Assembly (NCBI GenBank): GCA_050010255.1
Contig: JBEKLJ010000001.1
Coordinates: 960-64,959 of the forward strand
Origin: Bryobacteraceae bacterium
GTDB lineage: Bacteria > Acidobacteriota > Terriglobia > Bryobacterales > Bryobacteraceae
Length of the DNA stretch: 64,000 bases
Direction of reading: 5' to 3'
Below are positions 9,054 through 44,517 of this stretch, piece by piece. Each line of letters opens with the position of its first letter. The first letter of the stretch is position 1. Both the position numbers and the translations under genes were made by a program. The notes under the pieces were generated by a model. It did not search any database and was not told where the DNA came from. It worked only from the letters and a program-made list of their open reading frames with translations.

Positions 9054-9177
9054 CCGGGTCCACTTAGAATATCACGCTCGAACGCCGCCCCGGCCGGCTT
9101 AATTGCCTTCCTTCGCAGCCCGCCCCGGCCGCGTTCCAGCAAGCCGCAGCCGAAGGCGTGTGAGAAGATCGGGCTAA

Positions 9178-12454: not shown

Positions 12455-13236
12455 CTCTTTAGCTGAAACCAGATCTCGATTTGCGCGCTCGACCGCTCGT
12501 AGCCTTGCGGCAGCGCCGGAAACGGCGCGGCTTCGTAAACCGCGCGCTGGGCCGAATAGTCCAGGCCGCTATAGCCGCTGCGCTGCAAGATCCGCAGGTT
12601 GCGGATCGAGCCGTCGCGCAGAATCTCGAAGGTGACAATGACGGCGGGCGCGGTTTGCAGGCGCGCGTCCACCTCCTCGGTGCGCCATTTCTGCGCCACC
12701 CGCTGCTCCAGCAGGTCCCGGTACCAGCCGAAGCGGCTGCCGAATGCGCCGCCCGGGCCAATACCCACGCCGCCGGCGCCGGTCTGCGCGCCGAACATGG
12801 TCGAGCTCAATGCCTGTCCCGAATTCGAATAGAGCTGGTTCGGCCGCTCCGGCCCGGGCCGGTATTGGGCATACTGCCGCGGCCGCTCGGGCTGGGGCGG
12901 CCTCTGGCGCCCGCGGATGGCGATCGCATCCGGCTCCGGCGCCCGCACCTTCTCCGCCTGCGGTTTCGGCGGCAGCGGGACCCGCGACTCCGTGTCGTTC
13001 GCCAGCGGGTTCGCCGCGCCCGTCCGCGCGGGCAGCGGGATCTGCTTCACGGTCGTGATTCCGACCGCCGTACCTCCGCCCAGCGGATGAGGGTTGCCCC
13101 ACTGGACCCCCGCCTGCGTGCCCGCGTGACTGTAGTAGGCCATCAGCGAGAACGCCGCCGCGTGCACCGCCATCGAAAGCAGCACAGCCCGGCGCAGCGA
13201 TTCGCTCCCCTCCAGTACATCGATGCGTCCGGGCAT
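12451..13236 (-). CDS. TonB-C-domain energy transducer, TolA-like by position
   Basis: N-terminal TM segment, Pro-rich linker and a C-terminal TonB-type domain (VIVTFEILRDGSI...LQRSGYSGLD). Lies between tolR and tolB. Confidence 0.75.
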   Translation of the reverse strand: MPGRIDVLEGSESLRRAVLLSMAVHAAAFSLMAYYSHAGTQAGVQWGNPHPLGGGTAVGITTVKQIPLPARTGAANPLANDTESRVPLPPKPQAEKVRAPEPDAIAIRGRQRPPQPERPRQYAQYRPGPERPNQLYSNSGQALSSTMFGAQTGAGGVGIGPGGAFGSRFGWYRDLLEQRVAQKWRTEEVDARLQTAPAVIVTFEILRDGSIRNLRILQRSGYSGLDYSAQRAVYEAAPFPALPQGYERSSAQIEIWFQLKR

Positions 13237-13241
13237 GGTTT

Positions 13242-13697
13242 TCAGCGCCGCCGACGGGCCCTTTCCGCCTCATCCACCGGCTGGGTCACCATGTTGGGAT
13301 GGATCTTGGCCTCGCCCAGCGCCGCGATCACCTGCGCGACCACGTCCCAGATGGCGTCCTTGTCGGCTCGCACGTAGACGGCGTTCACCCGGCCAAACCG
13401 CCGCTCGATCGCACTGGCCAGGCTGTTGATGTTCACTTCATTCTCGTTCAGGTACAACCAGCCGTTCTTGGTGATGGTGATGACCGGCAGCTCTTGCGTC
13501 GAATCCTTGATCTGGTTCACCCTCGGCACGTCCACCTCCATGCCGAACTCCATGACCTGCGCCGTCAGCATGAAGATCACCAGCAGCACCATCACCACAT
13601 CGACCAGCGGGACGATGTTGATATCCGACACGGCCGAGAAGCCGCGGAAGCGGCTGCGCCCCAGGAACCCGCCCCCGCCGGTGTAGGAAAACGCCAT
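13242..13697 (-). CDS. tolR: biopolymer transporter ExbD/TolR
   Basis: 151 aa. INIVPLVDVVMVLLVIFM TM motif typical of ExbD/TolR. Confidence 0.9.
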   Translation of the reverse strand: MAFSYTGGGGFLGRSRFRGFSAVSDINIVPLVDVVMVLLVIFMLTAQVMEFGMEVDVPRVNQIKDSTQELPVITITKNGWLYLNENEVNINSLASAIERRFGRVNAVYVRADKDAIWDVVAQVIAALGEAKIHPNMVTQPVDEAERARRRR

Positions 13698-13755
13698 TCT
13701 CTGTTCGGTTCCTCCCCTGCCACTCGGCGCCCTGAACGCCCTGCTGTCAGCGCGT

Positions 13756-14445
13756 CTACTCTTCGAAGTTCCGCTCGGCCAGGTTCAAAAACTCCAGGCA
13801 GAAGTCTTCCATGCGCGCGCCGATCTCGCGGATCACATGGCTGTAGTAGTTGTAGAACACCGCGGCCGGGATGGCGGCCGCCAGGCCCATCGCCGTCGCC
13901 ACCAACGCCTCCGAGATGCCCGGCGCCACCGCGCGCAAACTAGCGCTGCCCGCCAGCCCCAGCCCCTGGAAGGCGTCGATGATGCCCCAGACCGTCCCGA
14001 ACAGGCCCACGAAGGGGCTCACCGCCGCGATGGTGGCCAGCCAGTTCATGTTCCGCTCCAGCTTCGCAACCTCCTCGCTGATGCCGAGCTGGAGCGCGCG
14101 CTGGAGCGCGGCCTCGCTGTTGATGCTGCCCCGCGCCCTCATCTGCCGCGTGACTTCCTCGTAGCCGAAGTCGAACACCGTTGCCAGCGGGCAGGGCCGG
14201 AACTGCTCGTTGGCCGCTGCCACCGCCTGAAGCCCCGCAGCCTTGCGGAAGGTCCTCAGGAACCGCGCATTGGCCGCCCGCGCTTTGGCAAACACCCGCC
14301 ACTTGGAGAAGATGACCGCCCAGGACAGGACCGAAGCGATCAGAAGAATCGCTAAAACGATGAGCGGCAAGGGTTTCGCCCGGCTCACCATGTCCCAGAT
14401 GCTGTATTGGAGAATGAGTACGGCAGGGTCGATGAGTTGGCTCAA
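13756..14445 (-). CDS. tolQ: MotA/TolQ/ExbB proton channel protein
   Basis: 229 aa, three TM segments. AAVSPFVGLFGTVWGII motif. Confidence 0.9.
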   Translation of the reverse strand: MSQLIDPAVLILQYSIWDMVSRAKPLPLIVLAILLIASVLSWAVIFSKWRVFAKARAANARFLRTFRKAAGLQAVAAANEQFRPCPLATVFDFGYEEVTRQMRARGSINSEAALQRALQLGISEEVAKLERNMNWLATIAAVSPFVGLFGTVWGIIDAFQGLGLAGSASLRAVAPGISEALVATAMGLAAAIPAAVFYNYYSHVIREIGARMEDFCLEFLNLAERNFEE

Positions 14446-14668
14446 CCTGGCTCCTTTCCGTGACTTCCATCATAGCGCTCAACTTCGGAGCACGCGGTTT
14501 GGGTTGTCATCCAGACGGCACCTTCGTAGGGCTGGCGTCCACGCCCGCCCTACAATCGGCCGCGCCCGCCGCGGCCCCCGCGGCCCCTAAGCGCCTTGCG
14601 GCTCAATGTGCTATCCTAATTCCGAACAGACGGAGATTAAGGACAGAGAAGGAGTATCCACTTCTAGC

Positions 14669-14938
14669 ATGGCCCTGGCGACAGACGTCAAGAAGCAGAT
14701 TGTGGGTCAGTTTCGGGTGCACACGACGGACACTGGTTCGCCAGAAGTGCAAGTGGCGCTGCTGAGCCGGAATATTGCCGAGCTCACCGAGCATTTTAAA
14801 TCCCACCCGAAGGACCATCACTCACGACGGGGTCTGTTGACCATGGTGGCCCGGCGCCGGCGGCTGCTCAAGTACCTCAAGGCTGAGGAGCCGGAGCGCT
14901 ATAAGCAGCTCATTCAGGAGCTGGGTCTGCGCCGCTAG
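14669..14938 (+). CDS. rpsO: 30S ribosomal protein S15
   Basis: [33 protein letters not shown]... starts at the internal ATG 14669, preceded by GAAGGAG. Confidence 0.97.
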
Positions 14939-15102
14939 AGGATACTCGCAGGCAGAGCGGGCGAGAGTCCATCGAGTCCGCCGGCGGTTAGCCGGTACAT
15001 CTGGACGCCGCCCTGGTTCAGAACCCGCTAGGTCATTCCGCCTCCAATCTCCATCGCGAGCCGGATTCCGGCTCGACAACGCACCGGCCGCGAGGGCCGG
15101 GA

Positions 15103-17220
<2,118 letters not shown>

Positions 17221-24784: not shown

Positions 24785-26527
24785 TCAGATCGCTTCCAGC
24801 TCCTCTTCCAGCAACTGTTTCTGGTAGAGATCGGCGTAGTAGCCGCCGGCGGCGATGAGGTTCTCGTGGGAGCCCTGCTCGACAATGCGGCCGGCCTCGA
24901 TCACGATGATGCGGTCCGCCTGGCGGACCGTCGAGACGCGGTGCGAGATGAGGATCGAGGTGCGGCCGCGCATGACGCCGGACAAGCCTTGCAGGATGCG
25001 CTCTTCGGTGAGCGTGTCCACGCTCGAGAGCGCGTCGTCGAGGATAAGGATGCGGGGATCGCGCAGGATGGCCCGGGCGATGGCCGCGCGCTGCTTCTGC
25101 CCGCCGGAGAGCGTGATGCCGCGTTCGCCGACTAGCGTCTGGTAGCCCTCCGGGAAGGTCTCGATGTCCGGCCCCAGCCCGGCGATCTCGGCGGCGCGGC
25201 GGATCTCCTCTGCGGTGGCGCGCTCGACGCCGAAGGCGATGTTGTCGGCCAGGGTGGCGCTGAACAGGAAGGTCTCCTGAGGGACGAACCCGATCTGGCG
25301 GCGCAGCTCGGCCGGCGAGAGCTCGCGCAGGTCGATGCCATCCAGGAGCACGGCCCCCGAGGTCGGATCCATGAGCCGGGGAACCAGGCGCGCCAGCGTG
25401 CTCTTGCCGCTGCCGGTGTGGCCGACGACGGCCACGGTTTCGCCGGCTCGGATCGCCAGGGAAACGCCGTCCAGCGCGCGGCCGGCCGGGTACTCCACCG
25501 CCGCCTCGCGGAACTCGATCGCGCCGCGCACCGGTTGCTCGAGCCGCCGGGGAGAAGGTGGCCCGGCGATCGACGGGCGCTCGTCCAGGAGCTGGCAGAT
25601 GCGGCCCAGCGAGGCTGACCCGCGCTGCATCAGGTTCACCACCCAGCCCAGCGCGATCATCGGCCAGACCAGCACCCCCATGTAGGTGTTGAACATGACG
25701 AAGCTCCCGAACGAGATGTGGCCGCTCATCATCCGCAGTCCGCCCACCCACAGCACGATGAGGAAGCTCAGCCCGACCAGCGCCTGAAGCAGCGGCATGA
25801 ACAGGCTCGAGATGCGCGCCAGCGACAGGTTCTGCGCCAGAAACTCGCGGTTGAGCTTCTCGAACTGGCGCACCTCGGACTCCTCCTGCGCGTAGGCGCG
25901 GATCACCCGCACGCCGGAGAGGTTCTCCTGCACGCGGCTGGAGATGTCGGAGAACATGGCCTGAATGCGCTCGAAGCGGCTATGGATGATGCGGCCGACG
26001 CGGATGACCGCCAGGCTGATCAGTGGGGCCGGCAAAAGCGCGATCAGCGTGAGCGGCCAGTCAACCGAGAGCATGACGGCGACCACTATTGCGACCGTCA
26101 GCGAAGTCTCGGCCCAGTACATGACGCCGGGGCCGAGCATCATGCGCACGGCGTTCAGGTCATTGGTGGCGCGGGCCATGATGTCGCCGGTGCGCATGCG
26201 CATGTAAAAGTCCGAGGAGAGGCCCACCAGGTGATCGAACAGGTTGTTGCGGAGGTCGTATTCGATATCGCGCGAGATGCCGATGAGGGTGACGCGCATC
26301 TGGTACTGAAAGACGCCCTTGAGGGCCGACAGGCCCACTATCAGCAGGCAAAACTGGAGGACGACGACCAGGCTGAAGCCGCGCGTGAGCGCGTCGATAC
26401 CGGCGCGGATCAGCAGGGGCAGGCCGGCCGCCGCCATGTCTTTCAGCACCAGGGCGCCGAATCCGATGACCAGCCCGCGGCGGTAGCGCCGGTAATACGG
26501 CCACAGCCGGCGGAACGTCTCCCGCAT
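24785..26527 (-). CDS. ABC exporter, fused permease/ATPase (MsbA/ABCB type)
   Basis: 580 aa from ATG 26527 (MRETFRRLWPYY). GHTGSGKST Walker A, LSGGQKQR signature, ILILDD Walker B. Confidence 0.9.
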   Translation of the reverse strand: MRETFRRLWPYYRRYRRGLVIGFGALVLKDMAAAGLPLLIRAGIDALTRGFSLVVVLQFCLLIVGLSALKGVFQYQMRVTLIGISRDIEYDLRNNLFDHLVGLSSDFYMRMRTGDIMARATNDLNAVRMMLGPGVMYWAETSLTVAIVVAVMLSVDWPLTLIALLPAPLISLAVIRVGRIIHSRFERIQAMFSDISSRVQENLSGVRVIRAYAQEESEVRQFEKLNREFLAQNLSLARISSLFMPLLQALVGLSFLIVLWVGGLRMMSGHISFGSFVMFNTYMGVLVWPMIALGWVVNLMQRGSASLGRICQLLDERPSIAGPPSPRRLEQPVRGAIEFREAAVEYPAGRALDGVSLAIRAGETVAVVGHTGSGKSTLARLVPRLMDPTSGAVLLDGIDLRELSPAELRRQIGFVPQETFLFSATLADNIAFGVERATAEEIRRAAEIAGLGPDIETFPEGYQTLVGERGITLSGGQKQRAAIARAILRDPRILILDDALSSVDTLTEERILQGLSGVMRGRTSILISHRVSTVRQADRIIVIEAGRIVEQGSHENLIAAGGYYADLYQKQLLEEELEAI

Positions 26528-27129
26528 CACAGGCCGGCCCAGTCGGCGAACGTCTTTGTCCATTCGAGAAGTACCTGCTTCCGACCCTCGCGGCTGCGCC
26601 ACCAATCCTCGGGCCGGAAGACCCAATCCGGCGCCGCGACCACGCGGAACCGGCCGGCGGCAGTCAGCCCGCGGAAGACCCGGGCGGTGCGGCCGGTGTG
26701 ATAGTTGCTGGTGACGACCATGAAGCGGCCCACGCCGCGGCGCCCTAACTCGCCCAGGATCTCGCGCGCCTCGTCGCGGGTCGAGCCGCCGCGCATGGGG
26801 AACGCGATGAACCAGTCGGAGGGGTAGCCCCGCCGCACCGCGAAGGCGATGGCCAGGTCGGATTCCCTCAAGCCGTAACAGCACTCCGGCCCGCTCACGA
26901 GGATCTTCGGGGCATACCCCTGCCGGACCAGCTCGGCGGCTTTCGCGATGCGGTTGCCCTTGTCGTCGCCGGCCAGCACCACAACCATCTCGGCCCGGAA
27001 CGGCTCCTGCGCGTCGATGAGGCCCCAGCCGAGCGCCCGCAGCCACAGCGTGCGTCCGAGAATCAGGATCAGAAGGACCAGGGCGATTGGGACAGCCCAG
27101 CGCAGGACTCGGGATCGCACCAGCGGCAC
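26527..27129 (-). CDS. DUF218/YdcF(ElyC)-family protein
   Basis: 200 aa with an N-terminal TM segment. VVVLAGDD...ILVSG and TSNYHTGR motifs. 1-nt stop/start overlap with the ABC gene. Confidence 0.75.
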   Translation of the reverse strand: MPLVRSRVLRWAVPIALVLLILILGRTLWLRALGWGLIDAQEPFRAEMVVVLAGDDKGNRIAKAAELVRQGYAPKILVSGPECCYGLRESDLAIAFAVRRGYPSDWFIAFPMRGGSTRDEAREILGELGRRGVGRFMVVTSNYHTGRTARVFRGLTAAGRFRVVAAPDWVFRPEDWWRSREGRKQVLLEWTKTFADWAGL

Positions 27130-27132
27130 GAA

Positions 27133-27690
27133 CTATTCTTTGTCGCTGGAGCCGTCGGGGTCAAGGTGACGGACGGTCCTCAGGCGCTGGTAGAGGCGCT
27201 CGACCTCGGCTTCGTCCTCGGGCCGCAGCAGCCGGTAGCGCGGCGAGGCCAGCGCCCGATCCTTGGCCGGCAGCGGCTCGCCCCAGAACTGGCGGTACGG
27301 GATGCCGTCGATGAGCGCCTCCCGCGCATGGCGCCGCAGGTGCCGCAGCAGGCTGTTGGTCGAATCGACGTCGCCCGGGTAGATCAGCAGCACGCGCGAG
27401 TCGTCGTCCAGGGTCAGGCTGACGGCCAGCGGCGAGAGCCAGCCGGTGCGGTCGAGCCGGCGGATGGCCGTCCAGGCGATGTGGCGGCGCCCAATGCCCA
27501 GGCGGGTCTCGCCAACCTCGATGGCCGGCCGCGAGGCCAGGTAGAGGAGCAACGCGGCCGTGGCCAGCAACAGCCCGGCTGCCACGTAAGCCGGCGCCCA
27601 GCGCCATCCGCACCACACCGAAAAGAGGCCGCACAGCACGGCCGCCAGTCCCGCCTGCAAGTAGTGCCTGGAAGGAACGTAGCGAGTCAC
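27133..27690 (-). CDS. hypothetical membrane protein (two N-terminal TM segments)
   Basis: 185-aa ORF in an operon with the DUF218 and ABC genes. No motif recognised. Confidence 0.55.
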   Translation of the reverse strand: MTRYVPSRHYLQAGLAAVLCGLFSVWCGWRWAPAYVAAGLLLATAALLLYLASRPAIEVGETRLGIGRRHIAWTAIRRLDRTGWLSPLAVSLTLDDDSRVLLIYPGDVDSTNSLLRHLRRHAREALIDGIPYRQFWGEPLPAKDRALASPRYRLLRPEDEAEVERLYQRLRTVRHLDPDGSSDKE

Positions 27691-27780
27691 GTGCGCGGTC
27701 TCCCCTCTTTCTTAAGCCTACCCCGGGTCACCGGAGGCGTCAATCCGTCTTAAGGTCCGCGGGTCTCGGCACATCCCGGC

Positions 27781-27858
27781 TCAGACGGGGACGCGCCGGC
27801 GCAGCACTTCCACCGCCCGCCAGACGTATCCCAGACCGCTCCAGACGGTCGCTGCAGC
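27781..27858 (-). pseudogene. displaced ancestral 3' end of pgsA (AAATVWSGLGYVWRAVEVLRRRVPV*)
   Basis: Translating the minus strand gives a tail homologous to the current pgsA C-terminus (AAAATVWSGLVYVWRGISLVRRR...). It is separated from pgsA by the HEPN/MNT insert. Confidence 0.7.
27818..27852. repeat. 35-bp direct repeat, left copy (pgsA 3'-end sequence)
   Basis: CGCCAGACGTATCCCAGACCGCTCCAGACGGTCGC matches 28714-28748 with 1 mismatch. Confidence 0.9.
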
Positions 27859-27861
27859 GGA

Positions 27862-28275
27862 TCAGATCAGGGCCGCTGCCGGCAAGACCCGCCGGATGGC
27901 GCTGCGAACCTCCTGTGCAACCTCGACGGCTTCGGAAGCCTCCTCCGCCGTGATCGGCTCCCAGTCCCCGGGGTAGCGCGCTTCGACCGAGTACCGATTC
28001 AGCATCAACACACGGCCGAATTCGAGCCGGAGCGTCGCGGGTTCGGAAAGGGCTTGGAAAAGCACTCGCAAATCGTGCGTCCTGGGGCAGTCCACGCCGA
28101 TCCATGCCAGGAGGCCTTTCAGGTATTTCTCCGCACACTGCTGCGCGTGGAAGCACACGGTGTCATAGGGACAATCCTCCGCCAGGGTCAGGGTGTGCTG
28201 TGCGTTGCGAAGATCGTTCTCAGCCTTGCGGACCCACTGCCGAACGAGCTCGACATCACCGGGCGCTGCGCTCAT
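27862..28275 (-). CDS. HEPN domain protein (toxin of a HEPN/MNT module)
   Basis: 137 aa. AENDLRNA...CFHAQQCAEKYLKGLL...RTHDL...ARYPGD HEPN pattern. 20-nt overlap with the upstream MNT gene. Confidence 0.85.
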   Translation of the reverse strand: MSAAPGDVELVRQWVRKAENDLRNAQHTLTLAEDCPYDTVCFHAQQCAEKYLKGLLAWIGVDCPRTHDLRVLFQALSEPATLRLEFGRVLMLNRYSVEARYPGDWEPITAEEASEAVEVAQEVRSAIRRVLPAAALI

Positions 28276-28603
28276 AGAGTACTTCGCCCTCTTTGGCCGC
28301 CGGCTCGATCAGTGTGCCTCTCCGGGTGCGGTTTCTCTCGAACTCCTCCGGGGTGACGACGATGACGTCGGCCGGCAGGTCCACTCCGATCAGCACGGCA
28401 TCTATGGCCGTGGCCTGTTTCCGCCGCGACCCTTCGACGCGCATCACCACCAGCAGGTCGGCGTCGCTATCTTCCGTGGCTGTGCCCCGCGCGTGGGAAC
28501 CGAAGAGAATGATCTTCTCGGGATGGAAGCGGTCGGCGATCCGCCGCGCCATCTCCTGGATTCGCCCGCGTGCGGGATTTGGGTTGCGATGGGCGGTACT
28601 CAT
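28256..28603 (-). CDS. minimal nucleotidyltransferase (MNT antitoxin)
   Basis: 115 aa. LFGSHARGTATEDSDADLLVV (GSxxRG...DxD) motif. Confidence 0.85.
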   Translation of the reverse strand: MSTAHRNPNPARGRIQEMARRIADRFHPEKIILFGSHARGTATEDSDADLLVVMRVEGSRRKQATAIDAVLIGVDLPADVIVVTPEEFERNRTRRGTLIEPAAKEGEVLYERSAR

Positions 28604-28640
28604 CCTTCAACGCCCTTTCAACACCATATTAGCAGCCGCA

Positions 28641-29228
28641 TTAGCCGCCGTTCTGAAGGCCCTTATCGCTTCCCATCTGCGCCGCCGCCCGCCTACGCAC
28701 CAGGCTGATGCCGCGCCAGACGTATACCAGACCGCTCCAGACGGTCGCGGCGGCGGCCGCCCAGAGCGGCCACTGAACGGGGACCTTCCAGTGAGGGAAG
28801 GCGCCGGCCGTCAGCACCGTGATCGCGGCCACAATCTGGAACAGGGTGCTGATCTTGCCCCAGACGCTGGGAGGGAAACTGCGGTGGGAGGTGAACAGCA
28901 GAGCCGCGGCGGCCAGGGCCAGAATCAGCACGTCGCGCCCGAAGACGACCAGGACCACCCAGAGCGGCACGGCGCCGGCGGCGCCCAGCGCGAGATAGGT
29001 GGCGCTGAGCAAAACCTTGTCCGCCACGGGGTCGAGATACGCGCCCAGGCGCGTGACGGAGTGCAGCCACCGGGCCAGCAGGCCGTCCAGAACATCGGTG
29101 GCGCCAGCCACGGCCACGATCGCCAGGGCGCGGCCGAACCGCCCCTGGAGAATCGCCCAGACCGCCAGCGGCGTGAGCGCCAGCCGCGTGAGCGTTACCA
29201 GGTTCGGAAGGTCGAGCATCCGCCGCAT
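28641..29228 (-). CDS. pgsA: CDP-diacylglycerol--glycerol-3-phosphate 3-phosphatidyltransferase
   Basis: 195 aa. DVLDGLLAR...GAYLDPVADK CDP-alcohol phosphatidyltransferase motif. The last ~24 codons are supplied by the inserted DNA. Confidence 0.85.
   Translation of the reverse strand: MRRMLDLPNLVTLTRLALTPLAVWAILQGRFGRALAIVAVAGATDVLDGLLARWLHSVTRLGAYLDPVADKVLLSATYLALGAAGAVPLWVVLVVFGRDVLILALAAAALLFTSHRSFPPSVWGKISTLFQIVAAITVLTAGAFPHWKVPVQWPLWAAAAATVWSGLVYVWRGISLVRRRAAAQMGSDKGLQNGG
28714..28748. repeat. 35-bp direct repeat, right copy (inside the current pgsA)
   Basis: Matches 27818-27852 with 1 mismatch. Confidence 0.9.
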
Positions 29229-29300
29229 CGTAGTGGCGTGCCGCGCCGGCGCTCAGGCCGGCGCTGGGTGCTTCGTGGCGCAGCCGCGCCCGCAACGTGT

Positions 29301-30191
29301 TCAGGATACCAAGGCGTCCGCCAAGCGCGAGGCCGCTCCCTCGAACGTGGTGATCTCGTACAGCGAGCTGTCGCTCATGATGCGGTTGACCAGCGCGGTG
29401 TGCATGGCGTGGCCGGCGCGCTCGGCGATGACGTGGCCCAGCAGCGGCCGGCCGATCAGCGCCAGGTCGCCGATCAGGTCGAGCGCCTTGTGGCGGCAGC
29501 ACTCGTCGGCGAAGCGCAGCCCGCCGGGGTTCATCACGCCGCGCCCGTTGATGCACACCGCGTTATCCAGAGACGCGCCGCGGATCAGGCCCATGTCCCG
29601 CAACTGGTCCAGCTCGTCGGCGAAGCCGAAGGTGCGCGCCGGCGCGATCTCGGCCGCGTAACTCTCGGGTGTCACCTCCAGCTCGAGCCTCTGCGCGCCC
29701 ACGGCCGGCTGCGGGAAGTTGATCTCGCAAGTCAGGCGGAAGCTGTCGGCGGGCAAAATCGAGATGCGCCGGTTGCGGTCCTCGACCGTCAAGGGGCGGC
29801 GGATGCGCAGATACCTCCTCAGCCGCCGGTAACTCCTCACGCCCGCCTGCTCAATCAGCTTCACGAACGGCAGCCCGCTGCCATCCAGGATCGGCACTTC
29901 CAGGTTGTCAATCTCGACGTAGGCGTTGTCGATGCCCATGCTGTAGAACACGCTCAGCAGGTGCTCGGTGGTCGAGATCAGCACGCCTTGGCGCATCAGG
30001 CTGGTGGCATAACTGACGCGGGCGACGTGACGCCAACTGGCGGAGACCGGGAAGCGGTCCAGGTCAGTGCGGAGGAAGACGATGCCGGTTGACGGTGGCG
30101 CCGGAAGGACGCGAATGCCGACGGGGACTCCGCTGTGCAGCCCAACCCCGCGGGCCTGAGCCGGCCGCTGGATAGTAGTCTCGAATCGCAA
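29301..30191 (-). CDS. lpxC: UDP-3-O-acyl-N-acetylglucosamine deacetylase
   Basis: 296 aa. GVGLHSG, TTEHLLS, EVPILDGS and HKALDLIGDL motifs. Confidence 0.95.
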   Translation of the reverse strand: MRFETTIQRPAQARGVGLHSGVPVGIRVLPAPPSTGIVFLRTDLDRFPVSASWRHVARVSYATSLMRQGVLISTTEHLLSVFYSMGIDNAYVEIDNLEVPILDGSGLPFVKLIEQAGVRSYRRLRRYLRIRRPLTVEDRNRRISILPADSFRLTCEINFPQPAVGAQRLELEVTPESYAAEIAPARTFGFADELDQLRDMGLIRGASLDNAVCINGRGVMNPGGLRFADECCRHKALDLIGDLALIGRPLLGHVIAERAGHAMHTALVNRIMSDSSLYEITTFEGAASRLADALVS

Positions 30192-30367: not shown

Positions 30368-32971
30368 ATGGCCCGCCCCCGCCTGTTTTTGATTGACTCC
30401 TTCGGGTTCATCTTCCGCGCCTTCCACGCCCGGGCGCGCTCGGGAGCGCCCCCCATGCGCACCAGCGCCGGTGTGCCCACCGAGGCGGTCTACATCTTCA
30501 CCAACATGCTGCGAAAGCTGACGGCGGCCTACGGGCCGGAGTACATGGCCGCGGTGTTCGAGAGCGTGGGCCCGACGTTCCGCGAGCAGGAGTTCGCCGA
30601 CTACAAGGCCAACCGGGAGGAGATGCCGGCGGAGCTGGCCCAGCAGATTCCCTGCATACGGCGGCTGCTGGAGGCCATGCGCATCCCGATCCTGGCCTAT
30701 GAAGGTTTCGAGGCCGATGACGTGATCGGCGCCATCGCGCGGCGGGCCGAGCAGGCCGGAGCGGAGGTGGCCATCGTCTCTAGCGACAAGGACCTCCTGC
30801 AACTAGTGGACGAGCACGTTGCGGTCTTCAATCCCATTCAGGAGGATCTTTGGTACGACCCGGCCAAGGTCGAGGAGAAGATGGGGGTCAGGCCGCAGCA
30901 GGTGGCCGACCTGCTGGCGCTCAAGGGCGACCCGAGCGACAACATCCCCGGGGCGCCGGGCATCGGCGACAAGGGCGCGCGCGAGCTGGTCGCGCGTTTC
31001 GGATCGGTGGAAGCGGCGCTGGATCGCGCCGCCGAGCTGGGCGACAAGGGTCACGACAAACGCTACCGCGAGAGCCTGGAGCAGAACCGCGACCGCATCC
31101 TGCTGAGCAAGCGCCTGGCCACGATCGACACCTCGGCGCCGATCGGCTTCTCCATGGAGGCGGTGCGGACACAGCCGGAGGACACCGCCGCGCTGAAGCA
31201 ACTCTACAAGGAACTGGAGTTCTACAGTCTGGTCGAGCAGCTCGGGCCGGAGGAAGACCAGCGCCCGCGCGACTACGCCGCGCTGGAAACGCCGGCGGCG
31301 ATCGAGGAGTACCTAGCGTCGATTCCGGCGGATGCGCCGGTGGCCGTGGCGGTCACGCCGGCCGCGCCGGCGGGTCCGGGGATGTTCGAGAGCGGCTCGC
31401 CAGCGGTTCTGGGGCTGACCTGGAAGCTGGGGCAGGCGCGCACGGCGGCGGGGACGCTCATCGAGCCTCTGCGAGGGTTGCTGGAGGACCCGGCGCGGGG
31501 GAAGATCGCGCACGACCTCAAGCGCGTGTGCCTGGAGCTGGCCCATCTCGGCATCGAGCCGCGCGGCCTCGAGCAGGACGTGATGCTTTACGCCTTCCTG
31601 CTCAACGCCGATCCCGCGGGCTGCTCGCTGGAGACGCTGGCGCGGCGCTACCTGGACCGCAAGCTCGAGCCGCTAGTCGAGCACCAGGCTGATTGCGCGC
31701 TCGCGCTGGCCGCCAGGCTCGGCCGCGAGGTGGATGAACGGGGGTTCCGCAAGCTATACCAGACCATCGACCTGCCGCTGGTGCGCGTGCTGACCCGGAT
31801 GGAGCAGCGCGGGATTCGCGTCCAGCCGGCCGCCATGCACCGTCTCTCACAAGCCATGGACACCGAGATCCAGCGGCTGACGGGGGAGATCCATGAGCTT
31901 GCCGGCCGGACCTTCAACATCAACTCCCCGCAGCAGCTCGGCAAGGTGCTGTTCGAGGATCTGCGTCTGCCGGCGCCCGTGAAATATGGCAAGGGCAAGA
32001 CCATCTCGACCGCGGCGGACGTGCTCGAGGAACTGGCCGCCGATTACGAGATCTGCCGCAAGGTGCTCGACTACCGCCAGCTCGTCAAGCTCAAGGGCAC
32101 TTACGTGGACGCGCTGCCGGCGCTGGTCAACCCGGCTACCGGCCGGCTGCACACCAGCTTCAACCAGACCGGCGCGGCGACAGGCCGCCTTTCCTCCTCC
32201 AACCCGAACCTCCAGAACATTCCGATCCGCACCGAACTGGGCCGCGAGATTCGCGCCGCGTTCATCCCGCGGGAAGACTGGAAGCTGGTGCTGGCGGACT
32301 ATTCGCAGATCGAGCTGCGGCTGCTGGCGCACTTCTCCAAAGATCCGGTGCTCATAGAGGCCTTCCGCCACGGCGAGGACATTCACACGCGCACGGCGGC
32401 CGAGGTCTTCGGCGTGCTGCCGCTGATGGTGACGCCGGAGCTGCGGCGGCGGGCTAAGGCGGTGAACTTCGGCATCGTGTACGGACTGAGCTCGTTCGGG
32501 CTGGCGGCGCAGCTCGGCATCCCGCGGCCGGAGGCGCAGGCTTACATCGACCGGTACTTCGCGCGCTATGCGGGCGTGCGACGGTTCATCGACGAGACCA
32601 TCGCCGAGGTCAGGCGCGCCGGGTTCACCAGGACCCTGTTCGGCCGCGAGCGGCCCATCCCGGACATGAACAACCGCAACCCCAACCAGCGCGGCTTCGC
32701 CGAGCGGACCGCCGTAAACACGCCCCTCCAGGGAACCGCGGCGGACCTGATCAAGCTCGCCATGATCCAGATCGAAGCCGAGATCGAGCAGCGGAAGCTG
32801 CGCACAGCCATGCTGCTCCAGGTGCACGACGAGCTGCTGTTCGAAGCCCCGCCGGAAGAGCTGGAGGAGATCCGGAAGCTGGTCAAGGCCGGCATGGAGC
32901 AGGTGTGCCGGCTGGAGGTGCCGCTGGTGGCCGAAATCGGCGTGGGCGACAACTGGCGCGACGCCAAGTAG
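30368..32971 (+). CDS. polA: DNA polymerase I
   Basis: 867 aa with 5'-3' exonuclease N-terminus, 3'-5' exo-like region and pol domain (DYSQIELR, QVHDELLFE). Confidence 0.97.
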   Translation: MARPRLFLIDSFGFIFRAFHARARSGAPPMRTSAGVPTEAVYIFTNMLRKLTAAYGPEYMAAVFESVGPTFREQEFADYKANREEMPAELAQQIPCIRRLLEAMRIPILAYEGFEADDVIGAIARRAEQAGAEVAIVSSDKDLLQLVDEHVAVFNPIQEDLWYDPAKVEEKMGVRPQQVADLLALKGDPSDNIPGAPGIGDKGARELVARFGSVEAALDRAAELGDKGHDKRYRESLEQNRDRILLSKRLATIDTSAPIGFSMEAVRTQPEDTAALKQLYKELEFYSLVEQLGPEEDQRPRDYAALETPAAIEEYLASIPADAPVAVAVTPAAPAGPGMFESGSPAVLGLTWKLGQARTAAGTLIEPLRGLLEDPARGKIAHDLKRVCLELAHLGIEPRGLEQDVMLYAFLLNADPAGCSLETLARRYLDRKLEPLVEHQADCALALAARLGREVDERGFRKLYQTIDLPLVRVLTRMEQRGIRVQPAAMHRLSQAMDTEIQRLTGEIHELAGRTFNINSPQQLGKVLFEDLRLPAPVKYGKGKTISTAADVLEELAADYEICRKVLDYRQLVKLKGTYVDALPALVNPATGRLHTSFNQTGAATGRLSSSNPNLQNIPIRTELGREIRAAFIPREDWKLVLADYSQIELRLLAHFSKDPVLIEAFRHGEDIHTRTAAEVFGVLPLMVTPELRRRAKAVNFGIVYGLSSFGLAAQLGIPRPEAQAYIDRYFARYAGVRRFIDETIAEVRRAGFTRTLFGRERPIPDMNNRNPNQRGFAERTAVNTPLQGTAADLIKLAMIQIEAEIEQRKLRTAMLLQVHDELLFEAPPEELEEIRKLVKAGMEQVCRLEVPLVAEIGVGDNWRDAK
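32846..32971 (+). repeat. 126-bp direct repeat, copy 1 (last 41 codons plus stop of polA)
   Basis: Matches 34939-35064 with 3 mismatches, counted by hand. Confidence 0.95.
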
Positions 32972-32975
32972 TCAA

Positions 32976-33001
32976 AACCCGGGACAGTACACTCATTCAC
33001 C
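32976..33001 (+). repeat. 26-nt sequence AACCCGGGACAGTACACTCATTCACC, also present at 47448-47473
   Basis: 23 of 26 identical. Both copies lie just downstream of a plus-strand stop codon. Confidence 0.7.
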
Positions 33002-33031
33002 GCCGCGGACGCAGGCTGGCGCGCGCCTGGG

Positions 33032-33148
33032 CGCCGTCGGCGCCGCCCGAGCCGGGCGGAGGTCGAACAGGTGGTTGCGGACTATCAGGCGAGCGGGTTG
33101 AGCCGGAGCGCGTTCTGCCGGATGCACGGGCTGGCCCTGAGCACGCTG
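33032..33148 (+). pseudogene. IS66-family TnpA-like (helix-turn-helix accessory protein) N-terminal fragment
   Basis: RRRRRPSRAEVEQVVADYQASGLSRSAFCRMHGLALSTL resembles the N-termini of IS66 orfA-type proteins. Similarity stops after about 39 residues, and no tnpB or tnpC follows. Confidence 0.5.
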
Positions 33149-33203
33149 GGCGCGGCCCGTTGCGGCGGCGGCAGGTTCTTCCGCCGGCGACGGTGGAAGA
33201 GGG

Positions 33204-33812
33204 CTAAGGGGCGGCGCCGGCAGTTCGGAAAGCCTCCTTCGATAACTGGGTAGTTCTCGCGTTCCCGCCCACAACCGTGTGCAGTGTCACCGTGTACACG
33301 GCCCGCCCGGCCGCCTCGAAAACGAGCAACCTGTCGAATTCGGCGCAACTCCGGAGCTCGCGGAAGATGTCGCCATCGAGGTCCCAGTCGCTTCCGGAAC
33401 AGTACATGAGGCGATACTGACCGGCTGGGATGTTGCCTGCGCTCCCGGTAGTCCCTGACCGCACATAGAAGAACCGCGCGGCCCGGTCGGTCGTGCGGTC
33501 GACCAGTTTCACCGCGGCATCCTCCGGGGTGTGGTTCACGACGCTCAGATCGCCGGCGTCACCCTCTTCGAAATCCAGAAGGATCTCCGCGCCGGTGGGA
33601 GGCCGAAGGATGTCGTGCCGTGGTTGGCTGGTTTTGTGTTTGCGTTCTGGAGGGGCGGGCGTCGGGGTGTCGGACCTGCCCGGGCCGACGTCGGCGACCG
33701 GTTGTGGGACCGCCGGTGAGGCGTAGAAGATGAGCCCGATTGCTAGACCCACCACGACTCCGGCACCAACCCAAGTGGCGCGGTAGGTGGAGACGGAGAA
33801 GAACGGGATCAC
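33204..33812 (-). CDS. hypothetical membrane-anchored protein (TM, Pro-rich linker, about 110-aa beta-rich domain)
   Basis: 202-aa ORF with coherent, non-shadow composition. Last gene of the islet cassette. Confidence 0.6.
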   Translation of the reverse strand: MIPFFSVSTYRATWVGAGVVVGLAIGLIFYASPAVPQPVADVGPGRSDTPTPAPPERKHKTSQPRHDILRPPTGAEILLDFEEGDAGDLSVVNHTPEDAAVKLVDRTTDRAARFFYVRSGTTGSAGNIPAGQYRLMYCSGSDWDLDGDIFRELRSCAEFDRLLVFEAAGRAVYTVTLHTVVGGNARTTQLSKEAFRTAGAAP

Positions 33813-33901
33813 GGCTGTGAAGGTAGTCTGGCCGCAGAGTGGGGATTCTCAGGCTTTATTGCCCCAACGGGCCTGGGCGGCCACGGGCGGCGACACAACC
33901 T

Positions 33902-34228
33902 TCAAATGGATCGCAGAAGGACGACTACCCCGAGGGCGGCCAGGCCGAATAGGCCCAATGCGGCAGGAACCAGCCGGGCCAACCCGATGCCGAGCCGTTT
34001 CAGCGACACGTAGCCCAGGACAGCCGCTATCAGAAAATAGGCTGAAGCCTGCCCGAACGCCGCAGCGGCGGCGTTACGGGCGGTGAACCCGATGAGGGCA
34101 GCCAGCAGTACGAAGCCTACCCAGCACCAGACCGCAGCAGCGGTTAGAGTGTCCTGCAGATCGACATCGTCGCGGAACCGCGCCACCACAGAGCGGGCCA
34201 TCCAGTACCGATCGGTGAGACCCGTCAT
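33902..34228 (-). CDS. hypothetical small membrane protein (3 predicted TM)
   Basis: 108-aa ORF with hydrophobic segments AAAVWCWVGFVLLAALIGF, ASAYFLIAAVLGYVSL and LVPAALGLFGLAALGVVVLL. Confidence 0.55.
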   Translation of the reverse strand: MTGLTDRYWMARSVVARFRDDVDLQDTLTAAAVWCWVGFVLLAALIGFTARNAAAAAFGQASAYFLIAAVLGYVSLKRLGIGLARLVPAALGLFGLAALGVVVLLRSI

Positions 34229-34275
34229 GTCACTTTAGTGGGGCAGGCACTCGGGAACTCTCAGGGGTTCTTGCG

Positions 34276-34731
34276 CTATCGGGCCGGCCAGGGGAAAAAC
34301 GGGATCATCCTGATGTGGATCGCCCGTTCGTCGTCGACCTCCAACGGGAAAGCCCCCCAAGAGACGACATGGGCCCCAACTACCACAACGAGAATCAAAG
34401 CCATCAATGAGGCGGCGGCTCGCCAACCCTGACCCAACCCACCCTGACGGTAAGCCTCGACGGCGGCCGCTGGCACGGCAAGAAAGGCTTGCAACGGCAG
34501 CAGGACCTTGGTAATACTGCTGGCGAGGAAGACGTAAAATGCCGGCGAGGCCAGGACGAACCAATCCCACCGTCTGAGGAGCAGGCGGGCGTCTGCATAA
34601 GTCATGGCGATGCCCGGAACGATCAGAAACAGGACCCAAAGGACTCCCAGGGGCAAGGAGACGAGAATGACCGCCGCCGACCGAGTGAGGGTGCGGCGCA
34701 CTGGAAGGGAACGCGTCGGAGGCGCTGCCAT
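34276..34731 (-). CDS. hypothetical membrane protein (4 predicted TM)
   Basis: 151-aa ORF with four hydrophobic stretches. Same strand as its neighbours and closely spaced. Confidence 0.55.
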   Translation of the reverse strand: MAAPPTRSLPVRRTLTRSAAVILVSLPLGVLWVLFLIVPGIAMTYADARLLLRRWDWFVLASPAFYVFLASSITKVLLPLQAFLAVPAAAVEAYRQGGLGQGWRAAASLMALILVVVVGAHVVSWGAFPLEVDDERAIHIRMIPFFPWPAR

Positions 34732-34785
34732 GGATCGCAGGGACTGTCCTCTCTAGACCGCAGTGGCGAGCGGGGGTTCAGGATC

Positions 34786-34899
34786 TCAGGCCTTTTTTCG
34801 CCACCGGGCTTTGGCGGCCTTCCGGGCCAAGCCTTTGCGCTCGGCCGGCGTAAGGTTCTTGCGGCTGTTCGCGCCGCCTCTAGTCCCCAACTCGGCCAT
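34786..34899 (-). CDS. possible 37-aa Lys/Arg-rich peptide (MAELGTRGGANSRKNLTPAERKGLARKAAKARWRKKA)
   Basis: ATG at 34899, first ORF of the islet cassette. The LTPxERxxxARKAAxARW-type basic tail recurs in small phage- or plasmid-borne proteins (from memory, not verified). Confidence 0.35.
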   Translation of the reverse strand: MAELGTRGGANSRKNLTPAERKGLARKAAKARWRKKA

Positions 34900-34938
34900 G
34901 ACTGCAGAAATCGTGTCGGGGCCGGGTGGAGTGCGCTC

Positions 34939-35064
34939 GCCCCGCCGGAAGAGCTGGAGGAGATCCGCACGCTGGTCAAGGCCGGCATGGAGCAGGTGTG
35001 CCGGCTCGAGGTGCCGCTGGTGGCCGAAATCGGCGTGGGCGACAACTGGCGCGACGCCAAGTAG
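34939..35064 (+). pseudogene. 126-bp direct repeat, copy 2: orphan duplicate of the polA 3' end
   Basis: Encodes APPEELEEIRTLVKAGMEQVCRLEVPLVAEIGVGDNWRDAK* with no polA sequence upstream. Confidence 0.95.
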
Positions 35065-44174: not shown

Positions 44175-44517
44175 AACACTCGCCTCCAGTTGGACCGTCC
44201 AGCCGCCGACTGTCCGCTGACGTCCAGGTTGAGACAAGAATACTGGAACTCCGGAATGCCTGCAAGAGTGTTTCTTTGATCTGCCCGCAACCGAAGCGGC
44301 CCCGATGAGGGCAATTTCACCTGCGCCTGGCGGACGGCGAGCTGGCGGCTGGCGGATAATCGCGAGAAAGCCGGTGATATTCCGGCCCTATTCCGGGAAT
44401 ATCAGTGGCCAGAGGTGACGCAAGAGCTAGAGCCCGATTTTCTCACGCCGTTCGGAGCGAGGCGCCGCGCGAGGCCGGTAGATTCAAGGCGCGCGACGGC
44501 CCTATCGCGCACGGCAC

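Follow-up and report, generated by a model that had tools for sequence, protein, structure and literature searches.

Insertion with long target duplication of restriction-modification gene complexes was reportedly described by Nobusato et al. in 2000. Among restriction-modification units, such an event is seen as an insertion or deletion relative to another strain, flanked by a genome-unique repeat of more than 30 bp and without mobility genes, and in some cases the repeat overlaps an adjacent gene at its 3' end (PMC2853133). Here, a footprint of this kind is described at the 3' end of a pgsA-like gene, where a predicted toxin-antitoxin (TA) pair, made up of a minimal nucleotidyltransferase (MNT) and a HEPN protein, has been inserted. 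The locus lies in a stretch of 64,000 nucleotides (positions 960 to 64,959 of contig JBEKLJ010000001.1, assembly GCA_050010255.1), called the window below, whose own numbering is used for positions given without a contig. The source is a Bryobacteraceae bacterium from peat, an uncultured acidobacterium whose assembly comprises 3.48 Mb and is 96% complete.

A related kind of event is the C-terminal displacement with orphan arrays in rhs loci, which is said to have been described by Jackson et al. in 2009. In loci of this type an incoming module displaces the 3' end of a gene while the old end is kept as an orphan, and homology-facilitated illegitimate recombination (HFIR) has been proposed as the route (Kirchberger et al., 2017; PMC5361080); more generally, homology-assisted illegitimate events have been described as shaping much small-scale diversity (Touzain et al.; PMC2884548). 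The event at the pgsA-like gene is an insertion with long target duplication, which can also be described as C-terminal displacement, and in kind it is a variant of what has been described for restriction-modification systems and polymorphic toxins. It is probable, in our view, that the insertion was guided by homology, needed no recombinase, duplicated its target and carried a foreign tail into the gene.

The repeat, the empty sites and the displaced tail

The MNT-HEPN pair is bracketed by a direct repeat, found by the repeat search as 43 nt with 3 mismatches at 27818-27860 and 28714-28756 (spacing 896) and lengthened by BLAST to 46-47 nt at 91.5% identity. The strict core of this repeat covers 35 nt (27818-27852 and 28714-28748), of which 34 are identical, the single mismatch being C at 27830 versus A at 28726; a first-pass annotation of this DNA had described a 35-bp repeat with one mismatch bracketing exactly this pair, and both the coordinates and the 34 of 35 matches were reproduced. 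Exactly two copies of the sequence exist across the 3.48-Mb genome, and the repeat is therefore not a dispersed repeat family, the alternative that had been named alongside that description. Essentially no repeat pair like this would be expected within 3.5 kb by chance. The core encodes ATVWSGLxYVWR, the C-terminal motif that is best conserved in the protein, and the variable base (T) of the gene-proximal copy belongs to a codon for which the population is polymorphic, with GGA, GCA or GTA (Gly, Ala or Val). The 35-mer also holds three GTCTGG hexamers, 10 and 11 nt apart, with the polymorphic codon between the second and the third. A 20-bit Rfam match to COG2908 RNA that falls exactly on the right repeat copy was taken as chance (gathering score 58.7).

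Empty sites were found in three relatives. The only other genome of the genus (G001) carries lpxC-pgsA on its contig C365 (L004 below) without the TA pair, and its pgsA ends ...ATVWSGLGYVWRAVEVMRRRVPV before the stop codon; this contig aligns to window 30297-28709 (96.7%) and 27860-27712 (92.6%), and the two blocks share 47 nt in L004. Two contigs from other metagenomes, L035 (15.6 kb, from JGI, the Joint Genome Institute) and L040 (from Logan), show the empty site at 95-96% identity, with blocks corresponding to window 30283-28710 and 27860-26400 that overlap by 46 nt. The undisturbed order in these two is lpxC, pgsA (183 aa), a 185-aa gene, DUF218, ABC, TetR and MFP (membrane fusion protein). 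In L004, L035 and L040 alike, pgsA ends ...RAVEV(L/M)RRRVPV and one repeat copy is present, which is the outcome sought when a comparison with relatives lacking the TA pair had been proposed: they carry the displaced tail and a single copy of the repeat. Within the 90% protein cluster of the pgsA-like gene, two sequences have the new tail and six the old one.

The old tail itself persists in the window. On the minus strand, the distal repeat copy continues in frame past the HEPN stop codon as SAAATVWSGLGYVWRAVEVLRRRVPV with a stop at 27781-27783, and the displaced pgsA tail spans 26 codons. Translation of the minus strand reproduced this reading frame as first annotated, and its interpretation as a displaced ancestral pgsA C-terminus was borne out, the relic matching, letter for letter, the tail that is functional in L040 and L035. 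Outside the genus, the nearest homologues have similar tails, such as that of P0004 (AVQLLRKRVPLAR).

The filled form is present in contigs from four other samples, and the two that were compared base by base (L036 and L037) are 100% identical to the window. Among the Logan contigs, which are single-run assemblies, record 2 of X1 covers 27282-29424 and record 11 of X2, from a different sample and study, covers 27463-28774, each of them spanning both junctions with zero differences. Since independent contigs span both junctions, the filled form is not an assembly artefact. It is found in one clonal lineage, the empty form is found in at least three lineages, and the old tail is like those of the nearest homologues, all of which argues for insertion and not repeated deletion; judged on these sequences, insertion is far more parsimonious.

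The surrogate tail and the divergence of the stub

The inserted foreign DNA is 861 bp long and entered at a point 12 codons ahead of the stop of the pgsA-like gene. The tail that the gene now reads into was scored with a position-specific profile of the first 8 residues after the conserved W-[RQ], built from 95 further pgsA homologues of Bryobacteraceae type with its own cluster excluded, against a null of 400,000 random stop-free 8-mers from six-frame translations of this genome. The 8-mer GISLVRRR scores 7.67 nats, compared with a median of 7.91 for the 95 real homologue tails and 5.1 for the host's old tail, and random 8-mers reach 7.67 nats at a rate of 4e-5. Because the score is about that of a typical homologue and the random rate is so low, the new tail counts as genuinely pgsA-like. 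Its closest homologue tails are GISLLRSQSN, GISLLRSST and GACLLRRRAAGTPN, the other two frames of the same DNA show no likeness to a pgsA tail, and tblastn alignments of relatives extend 11-14 residues into it (up to residues 183-186). In composition, the insert has 63.9% GC and its two genes a third-position GC (GC3) of ~77%, compared with ~70% and 89-90% in the neighbouring genes, and the GC3 of the new tail is 54% versus 89.5% in the rest of pgsA. The new tail is a genuine foreign pgsA end brought by the insert, and the earlier suggestion that the TA cassette arrived with a surrogate pgsA 3' end is supported by the tail profile (p ~4e-5).

The pgsA-like DNA at the two ends of the cassette, termed the stub here, is unevenly diverged from the host. 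The 9 nt behind the HEPN stop match the host at 6/9, the core at 34/35 and the tail at 12/24, while pgsA orthologues of 57-62% protein identity (P0053 = L151 and P0015 = L149) match the host at 6-7/9, 26-30/35 and 13-14/24, respectively, and the core identity in 28 family genomes is at most 26/35. On these counts the divergence of the stub flanks is that of a distant orthologue, while both copies of the core look like the host. The 9 nt (TCCGCTGCA compared with GCCGCCGCC in the host) encode Ser-Ala-Ala in place of Ala-Ala-Ala, and of the three differences two fall on the third base of a codon. With a chance probability of ~0.02-0.04 by a binomial estimate, the match is no more than suggestive, and the 9 nt may be where a pgsA stub that came with the cassette has its 5' edge.

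The MNT-HEPN cassette

Read as a circle of 896 bp, the unit consists of the TA operon (742 nt), the 9 nt TCCGCTGCA, the 35-mer, the tail (70 nt plus stop codon) and the leader (37 nt). The HEPN C-terminus (LPAAALI) aligns with its homologues through the last residue, and since the protein is complete to that residue, the border of the cassette lies directly after the native HEPN stop. A derivation of this C-terminus (...LI and stop) from pgsA (LIW) was ruled out, as homologues align to the last residue and the TVW spacing is one codon off. At the other end, the last ~30 nt ahead of MNT are conserved with the leaders of MNT genes of 71-73% identity in L047 and L042, which indicates that the regulatory region of the TA pair itself starts just past the surrogate stop codon.

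By family, the MNT-HEPN pair would be a toxin-antitoxin or abortive-infection module, and HEPN would presumably be its toxin. MNT carries the nucleotidyltransferase motif G-S-x(n)-D-x-D (GSHARGTATEDSDADL in translation); it reaches 34 bits with the NCBIfam MntA antitoxin model, which is below the threshold of 60, and matches the PADLOC candidate system PDC-S09 (E 4e-13). The family invariants of HEPN in the homologue alignment are R94, E98 and R100. In a search of 5.8 billion proteins, the nearest HEPN relatives were 65% identical and spread over many phyla. No terminator- or promoter-like site was found in a scan of the minus strand within the cassette, and as it holds no terminator-like site on this strand, read-through into the downstream genes is possible.

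The closest TA relatives (L042 1-4565, also L043, L044 and L046, and L041 946-5513; 65% identity in HEPN and 71% in MNT) sit in a 4268-bp unit of pncB, pncA, MNT, HEPN and two unknown genes. Several contigs of 4-5 kb wrap around this unit with 100% identical ends, indicating a circle or tandem array, and in L041 the unit is found in a chromosome-like contig between two NAPRTase (nicotinate phosphoribosyltransferase) copies that are 93% identical over 300 nt. From this arrangement, the unit may be a small element that carries a TA pair and became integrated through homology to a host gene.

Recurrence of the footprint

For the survey of related cassettes, HEPN relatives of 43-60% identity from many phyla were taken at 80 loci, 76 of them usable. 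A direct repeat of at least 39 bits shared between the 450 nt upstream of MNT and the 450 nt downstream of HEPN was sought, with 115 equally shaped windows shifted along the same loci as controls. A flanking direct repeat (31-79 nt) was present at 15 of the 76 MNT-HEPN loci and in 1 of the 115 controls (Fisher p = 4e-6). In L117, L109, L144, L074 and L090 it is the upstream gene whose end is repeated, and a relic tail lies behind HEPN; in L077, L143 (hsdM) and L119 the repeat corresponds to the 5' end of a neighbouring gene. A search for other HEPN/MNT cassettes with gene ends, which had been proposed as a check, was thus productive, several of the 15 duplicating the end of the upstream gene.

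Some of these loci have particulars of their own. In L143 (3502-3536) and L077 (3436-3512) the repeated stretch is the 5' end of the gene downstream of the cassette, and its stub copy is found on the upstream side; the N-terminus encoded by that gene is HsdM-like in L143 and reads EPWYKVAMPRKEVREGRSFNPDEFA in L077. In L117 (2451-3490) and L109 (1561-2542), both from Pirellulales, the cassette lies 88-89 nt behind the same gene (...KCPTGVIVYRG...) and a relic tail follows each. Their cassette-side tails are alike and their relics differ, the TA pair being ~84% and the host gene ~69% identical between them; as a case of independent insertions the two were not decisive, the identities being compatible with vertical inheritance.

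Comparison of the genome with itself gave ~75 nearby direct-repeat pairs, many of them in high-copy families resembling REP (repetitive extragenic palindromic) or MITE (miniature inverted-repeat transposable element) sequences. About 13 are two-copy pairs of 35-414 nt that include the 3' end of a gene and bracket 1-4 genes, and these are found at pgsA, at polA and on contigs C8, C26, C39 (two), C68 (two), C84, C103, C107, C146 and C224. Judged by eye from translations, the cargo of these islets includes an oxidoreductase, a methyltransferase, an ABC permease, a radical-SAM/PqqD cluster, an extracytoplasmic function (ECF) sigma factor and an Mrr-like nuclease; no recombinase was noticed among the cargo on the same inspection, for which no family search was run. 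In G001 the C68 islet is shared, and at C84 the inner gene is present and the relic copy absent.

In the polA islet (window 32846-35064), a 126-nt repeat of 98% identity brackets a 2.1-kb insert with three small minus-strand genes. This islet is absent in L035, where polA is directly followed by the M1 peptidase gene, which makes it strain-specific as well; the alignment with L035 ends past 35069. The first-pass annotation had drawn a parallel between the two loci and proposed a shared mechanism that targets the ends of essential genes. The parallel stands with respect to the footprint, which is of the same kind and is likewise missing from L035, while the targeting mechanism found no support: the ~13 duplications adjoin genes of all kinds, and neither a recombinase nor a shared target motif was found.

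How the insertion may have arisen

The junction inside pgsA falls precisely where a foreign pgsA would align with the host gene, in the same register, which points to homology-guided recombination and not to a transposase or integrase. The foreign unit comprises the pgsA 3' end of another lineage, the 37-nt leader and the intact MNT-HEPN operon; the pgsA-like gene is kept whole by reading into the foreign tail, with the original tail left dead behind HEPN. A cassette with a pgsA stub, either circular or linear with inward-pointing ends, could have paired with the host gene and entered by a single Campbell-type or ends-in recombination, the gap being repaired from the host. Gap repair from the host would leave the 35-nt core host-like in both copies and the stub flanks diverged, and HFIR would leave an equal pattern. 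Once the cassette had entered, TA addiction would penalise its loss via recombination of the two 35-nt repeats. The stub-carrying version of the route is the one we prefer, though only tentatively, and the balance between it and HFIR is close to even, as the two differ only in whether the 9 nt past the HEPN stop are a pgsA stub.

The HFIR version would have the donor's MNT-HEPN lying 37 nt behind the donor pgsA, with linear DNA anchored by pairing in the pgsA end and its far end, past the HEPN stop, joined to the host gene at a microhomology that lies 35 nt farther upstream, so that neither stub nor circle is needed. It yields the same final structure, predicts that both 35-mers are host-like, as found, and fits the patchy identity at the distal junction (CCGC.GC.), which is what a microhomology joint would look like; members of the TA family are found 51-59 nt behind a same-strand housekeeping gene, so a pgsA-TA donor is plausible. 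Its cost is that the illegitimate joint must fall exactly at the HEPN stop plus 9 nt and that those 9 nt must be pgsA-like (6/9). The usual outcome of HFIR is deletion rather than duplication. No Ku was found in the genome, and the enrichment of flanking repeats in the TA family would be easier to account for if the repeats take part in the movement of the cassette. HFIR has been proposed for effector displacement (PMC5361080) and for dimorphic loci (PMC2884548), and the published account of the latter describes a resident segment being replaced (PMC2884548). On this evidence we regard the HFIR version as possible and, taken by itself, rather unlikely. Site-specific integration, by a recombinase acting in trans or through a larger element that carried the TA pair beside a pgsA-mimicking attP and has since decayed, is less probable again, and we would rate it as quite unlikely. 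A surrogate 3' end with a near-identical core is the classical signature of an integrase at a gene end, and a decayed integrase fragment lies between perfect 47-bp repeats on contig C101. The 861-bp insert contains MNT and HEPN only and no recombinase gene, no terminal inverted repeats stand out, and it is too compact for remnants, with 9 nt from the HEPN stop to the repeat and 37 nt from the pgsA stop to MNT. The 96%-complete genome has only three tyrosine-recombinase matches, two of full length that appear from their size to be Xer-type and one 222-aa fragment at C101, along with one large serine recombinase on contig C217. Serine recombinases are not known to produce 35-bp duplications. The repeats of comparable islets vary from 35 to 414 bp with no shared motif (none of at least 12 nt is common to the 13 gene-end repeats), and the pgsA ends of 28 family genomes are without cassettes or relics, which indicates that the position is not a recurrent attachment site. 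As for features of integron cassettes, no extra tyrosine recombinase was found and no structured-RNA or repeat match beyond the chance-level 20-bit COG2908 one, with no dedicated attC model having been run.

Two further explanations deny that an insertion took place in this lineage or that pgsA-derived DNA travelled with it. If the filled state were ancestral, the empty relatives would have been made by deletion between the 35-nt repeats, and recombination of the two would indeed restore precisely the empty allele. The filled form is one clonal lineage, though, and the empty form is found in three lineages including another species of the genus, with the present data suggesting that the empty-site lineages are paraphyletic around the filled one; the old tail is like the nearest pgsA homologues outside the genus and the new tail like more distant ones, the insert is compositionally foreign, and the duplication would still require an earlier insertion. 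This polarity is hardly credible. A plain insertion with target duplication, in which the new tail is a fortuitous read-through, is very improbable. Open frames of 23 codons are common in DNA of 66% GC, the GC3 of the tail is low (54%), and its stop codon sits in the AT-richer promoter region of the TA operon, but chance matches to the GISLVRRR score are as rare as 4e-5 while the score is near the median of real tails, the remaining two frames are unlike pgsA tails, and the junction is exactly in register with the family alignment.

Several points weigh against homology-guided insertion of a foreign pgsA end with a TA module. An identity of 35 nt is near the lower limit for RecA-dependent exchange, and the 5' edge of the stub depends on the 6/9 match and its chance probability of ~0.02-0.04. 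The donor was not found: the arrangement expected of it is a pgsA ending ...YVWRGISLVRRRAAAQMGSDKGLQNGG followed by MNT-HEPN, and no protein shares the new tail in a search of this region in 5.8 billion proteins, the TA pair lies behind pgsA in no family genome searched, a relic pgsA tail was seen in 0 of the 28 scanned, and the HEPN nearest to the cassette is only 65% identical. The closest TA relatives (L041-L051) lie behind an isochorismatase gene with no relic tail. For a coding end, the GC3 of the new tail is low enough to be somewhat unusual, although a donor of lower GC content would account for it. The predicted circle or tandem junction (HEPN stop, TCCGCTGCA, the 35-mer, CGGCATCAGC) is absent from metagenome contigs, although assembled contigs rarely show one. 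With respect to the module itself, the 137-aa HEPN lacks the canonical R-x4-6-H motif, its nearest equivalent being R23-N-A-Q-H27 (R-x3-H), and the nearest solved structures (1WOL, 1UFB and 1WOT) are uncharacterised structural-genomics proteins.

A broader reading of the homology-guided route, which is speculative and which we think improbable in this general form, is that MNT-HEPN cassettes, and probably other small TA operons, are recombinase-free mobile units that use a gene-end stub as a portable homology arm. The stub would be the short conserved end of the gene behind which the unit last sat; the unit would loop out between the repeats or be taken up as linear DNA and would re-enter at an orthologous gene end by host homologous recombination and gap repair, with the surrogate tail patching the gene and the toxin then penalising loss of the cassette. 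This reading is drawn from the diverged stub flanks around a host-identical core and from the flanking repeats at 15 of 76 loci versus 1 of 115.

Gene order and other features of the locus

On the minus strand between 26500 and 30200, the order is lpxC, the pgsA-like gene, MNT, HEPN, a gene for a 185-aa membrane protein and DUF218, with an ABC exporter after them (Table 1). The name pgsA, used in the first-pass annotation, is kept in qualified form. TIGR00560 is the best NCBIfam match at 99.4 bits, under its cut-off of 109.1, and the ClsA model is second-best with 88.7 bits against a cut-off of 240; the gene is the sole CDP-alcohol phosphatidyltransferase gene in the genome at E<=1e-20. By these matches, membership of the CDP-alcohol phosphatidyltransferases is secure and "pgsA-like" can safely be used as its name.

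Table 1. Coordinates of the features at the pgsA-like locus and of the other gene-end repeats in the same genome (G000).
Feature	Position	Strand	Basis or remark
lpxC	29301-30191	minus	Pfam LpxC, E 2e-99; upstream of the pgsA-like gene; lpxC-then-pgsA order also in empty-site relatives
pgsA-like CDP-alcohol phosphatidyltransferase gene, 195 aa	28641-29228	minus	Pfam CDP-OH_P_transf, E 7e-33
Host-derived part of pgsA-like gene, residues 1-172, ending ...TVWSGLVYVWR	28714-29228	minus	96-97% identity with L004 and L035 down to 28710
Gene-proximal copy of 35-nt duplicated target, GCGACCGTCTGGAGCGGTCTGGTATACGTCTGGCG on minus strand	28714-28748	minus	Repeat search and alignment of relatives
Surrogate (foreign) pgsA tail GISLVRRRAAAQMGSDKGLQNGG and stop codon	28641-28713	minus	Not in empty-site relatives; tail profile
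TA operon leader, 37 nt, with TAATAT box and GGGCG...GAAGG ribosome-binding region	28604-28640	minus	~30 nt conserved with L047 and L042 leaders
MNT, minimal nucleotidyltransferase, 115 aa, predicted antitoxin	28256-28603	minus	Pfam NTP_transf_2, E 1.8e-13
HEPN protein, 137 aa, full length, predicted toxin; 20-nt overlap with MNT	27862-28275	minus	Pfam HEPN, E 9e-28
9 nt TCCGCTGCA, from HEPN stop to distal repeat copy	27853-27861	minus	6/9 versus host GCCGCCGCC
Distal copy of 35-nt duplicated target	27818-27852	minus	Identical to single copy in L040 and L004
Displaced ancestral pgsA tail AVEVLRRRVPV and stop, now non-coding	27781-27817	minus	Identical to working pgsA end of L035 and L040
Native intergenic region (27691-27780) and 185-aa membrane protein gene (27133-27690)	27133-27780	minus	Gene directly after pgsA in empty-site relatives; weak Pfam DUF3093 match
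DUF218 gene	26527-27129	minus	Pfam
Further gene-end repeats (about eleven in all, 67-414 nt, 86-98% identical)	C8:13400-20840, C26:1503-3174, C39:6488-9545 and 14470-16244, C68:6354-7845 and 13054-14501, C84:3955-5753		
Further gene-end repeats (same set)	C103:9276-11308, C107:8091-8824, C146:663-3301, C224:223-1930		

Other repeats were observed in the genome besides these. At C101:8041-10175, perfect 47-bp direct repeats surround 2 kb with the 222-aa C-terminal fragment of a tyrosine integrase; the segment is probably a decayed integrative element, judging from this content, and it is the sole integrase-linked repeat pair seen in the genome. A repeat element of ~146 bp gives 122 BLAST matches in the genome and is found in the window at 44464-44499 and 9135-9173 and in L004 at 2122-2267; in G001 it lies in the spacer just after pgsA, at the contig end. 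At C158:1781-2425, a 214-aa open reading frame resembles by eye a REP-associated tyrosine transposase (RAYT, IS200-like), no family search having been run, and other REP-like families have 45-79 copies.

Comparison with known systems

The locus offers a clean, datable case of a selfish two-gene module that, lacking any mobility enzyme itself, entered the coding end of an essential envelope gene and spared the cell by supplying a replacement end. Should the footprint be as frequent as the survey suggests (15 of 76 loci; ~13 islets in this genome), homology-guided insertion with duplication, which has so far been described mainly for restriction-modification systems, would be a quantitatively important mode of gene gain in uncultured soil bacteria. 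Displaced gene tails could mark recent insertions in metagenome-assembled genomes, and the movement of TA modules between chromosomes becomes directly testable.

Examples of HEPN-MNT systems are SO_3165/SO_3166 of Shewanella oneidensis and the HEPN/MNT pair of Aphanizomenon, which are of type II/VII. Like these systems, the pair at the pgsA-like gene is a two-gene operon with MNT upstream of HEPN, overlapping genes and a G-S...D-x-D motif, while it differs in that it belongs to the PF05168 subfamily, which has no characterised member, falls below the threshold of the MntA model and has no R-x4-6-H. Another known parallel is provided by e14 and phage 21, which integrate in the 3' end of icd in Escherichia coli and carry a surrogate 3' end. 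As in that case, a replacement end of a housekeeping gene is carried in, the native end is left downstream and the copies differ at few positions, whereas those elements have their own integrase and many kilobases of DNA, as opposed to 861 bp with the TA pair alone.

The likeness to effector-immunity loci of rhs, contact-dependent inhibition (CDI) and type VI secretion systems (T6SS) is that the incoming module pairs with the resident gene over a conserved stretch, that linked genes arrive together with a new 3' end, and that the orphan keeps the conserved stretch. As opposed to a polymorphic toxin, the resident gene here encodes a housekeeping enzyme of lipid synthesis; what was displaced is a cytoplasmic tail of 11 residues without functional specificity, and the passenger is an autonomous TA operon in place of a cognate immunity gene. 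For the restriction-modification units, the criteria of Furuta, Abe and Kobayashi (2010) can be compared directly with the locus: its site is empty in relatives, the repeat exceeds 30 bp, the insert is shorter than 20 kb and mobility genes are absent. As in those units, a small addiction-type unit is found with no transposase or integrase and with a unique repeat that aligns to a single copy in a relative, and the mechanism is left open in that literature too. The difference is that the cargo here is a TA pair and that the gene-proximal copy leads into a diverged foreign tail, so that the event is not a pure duplication.

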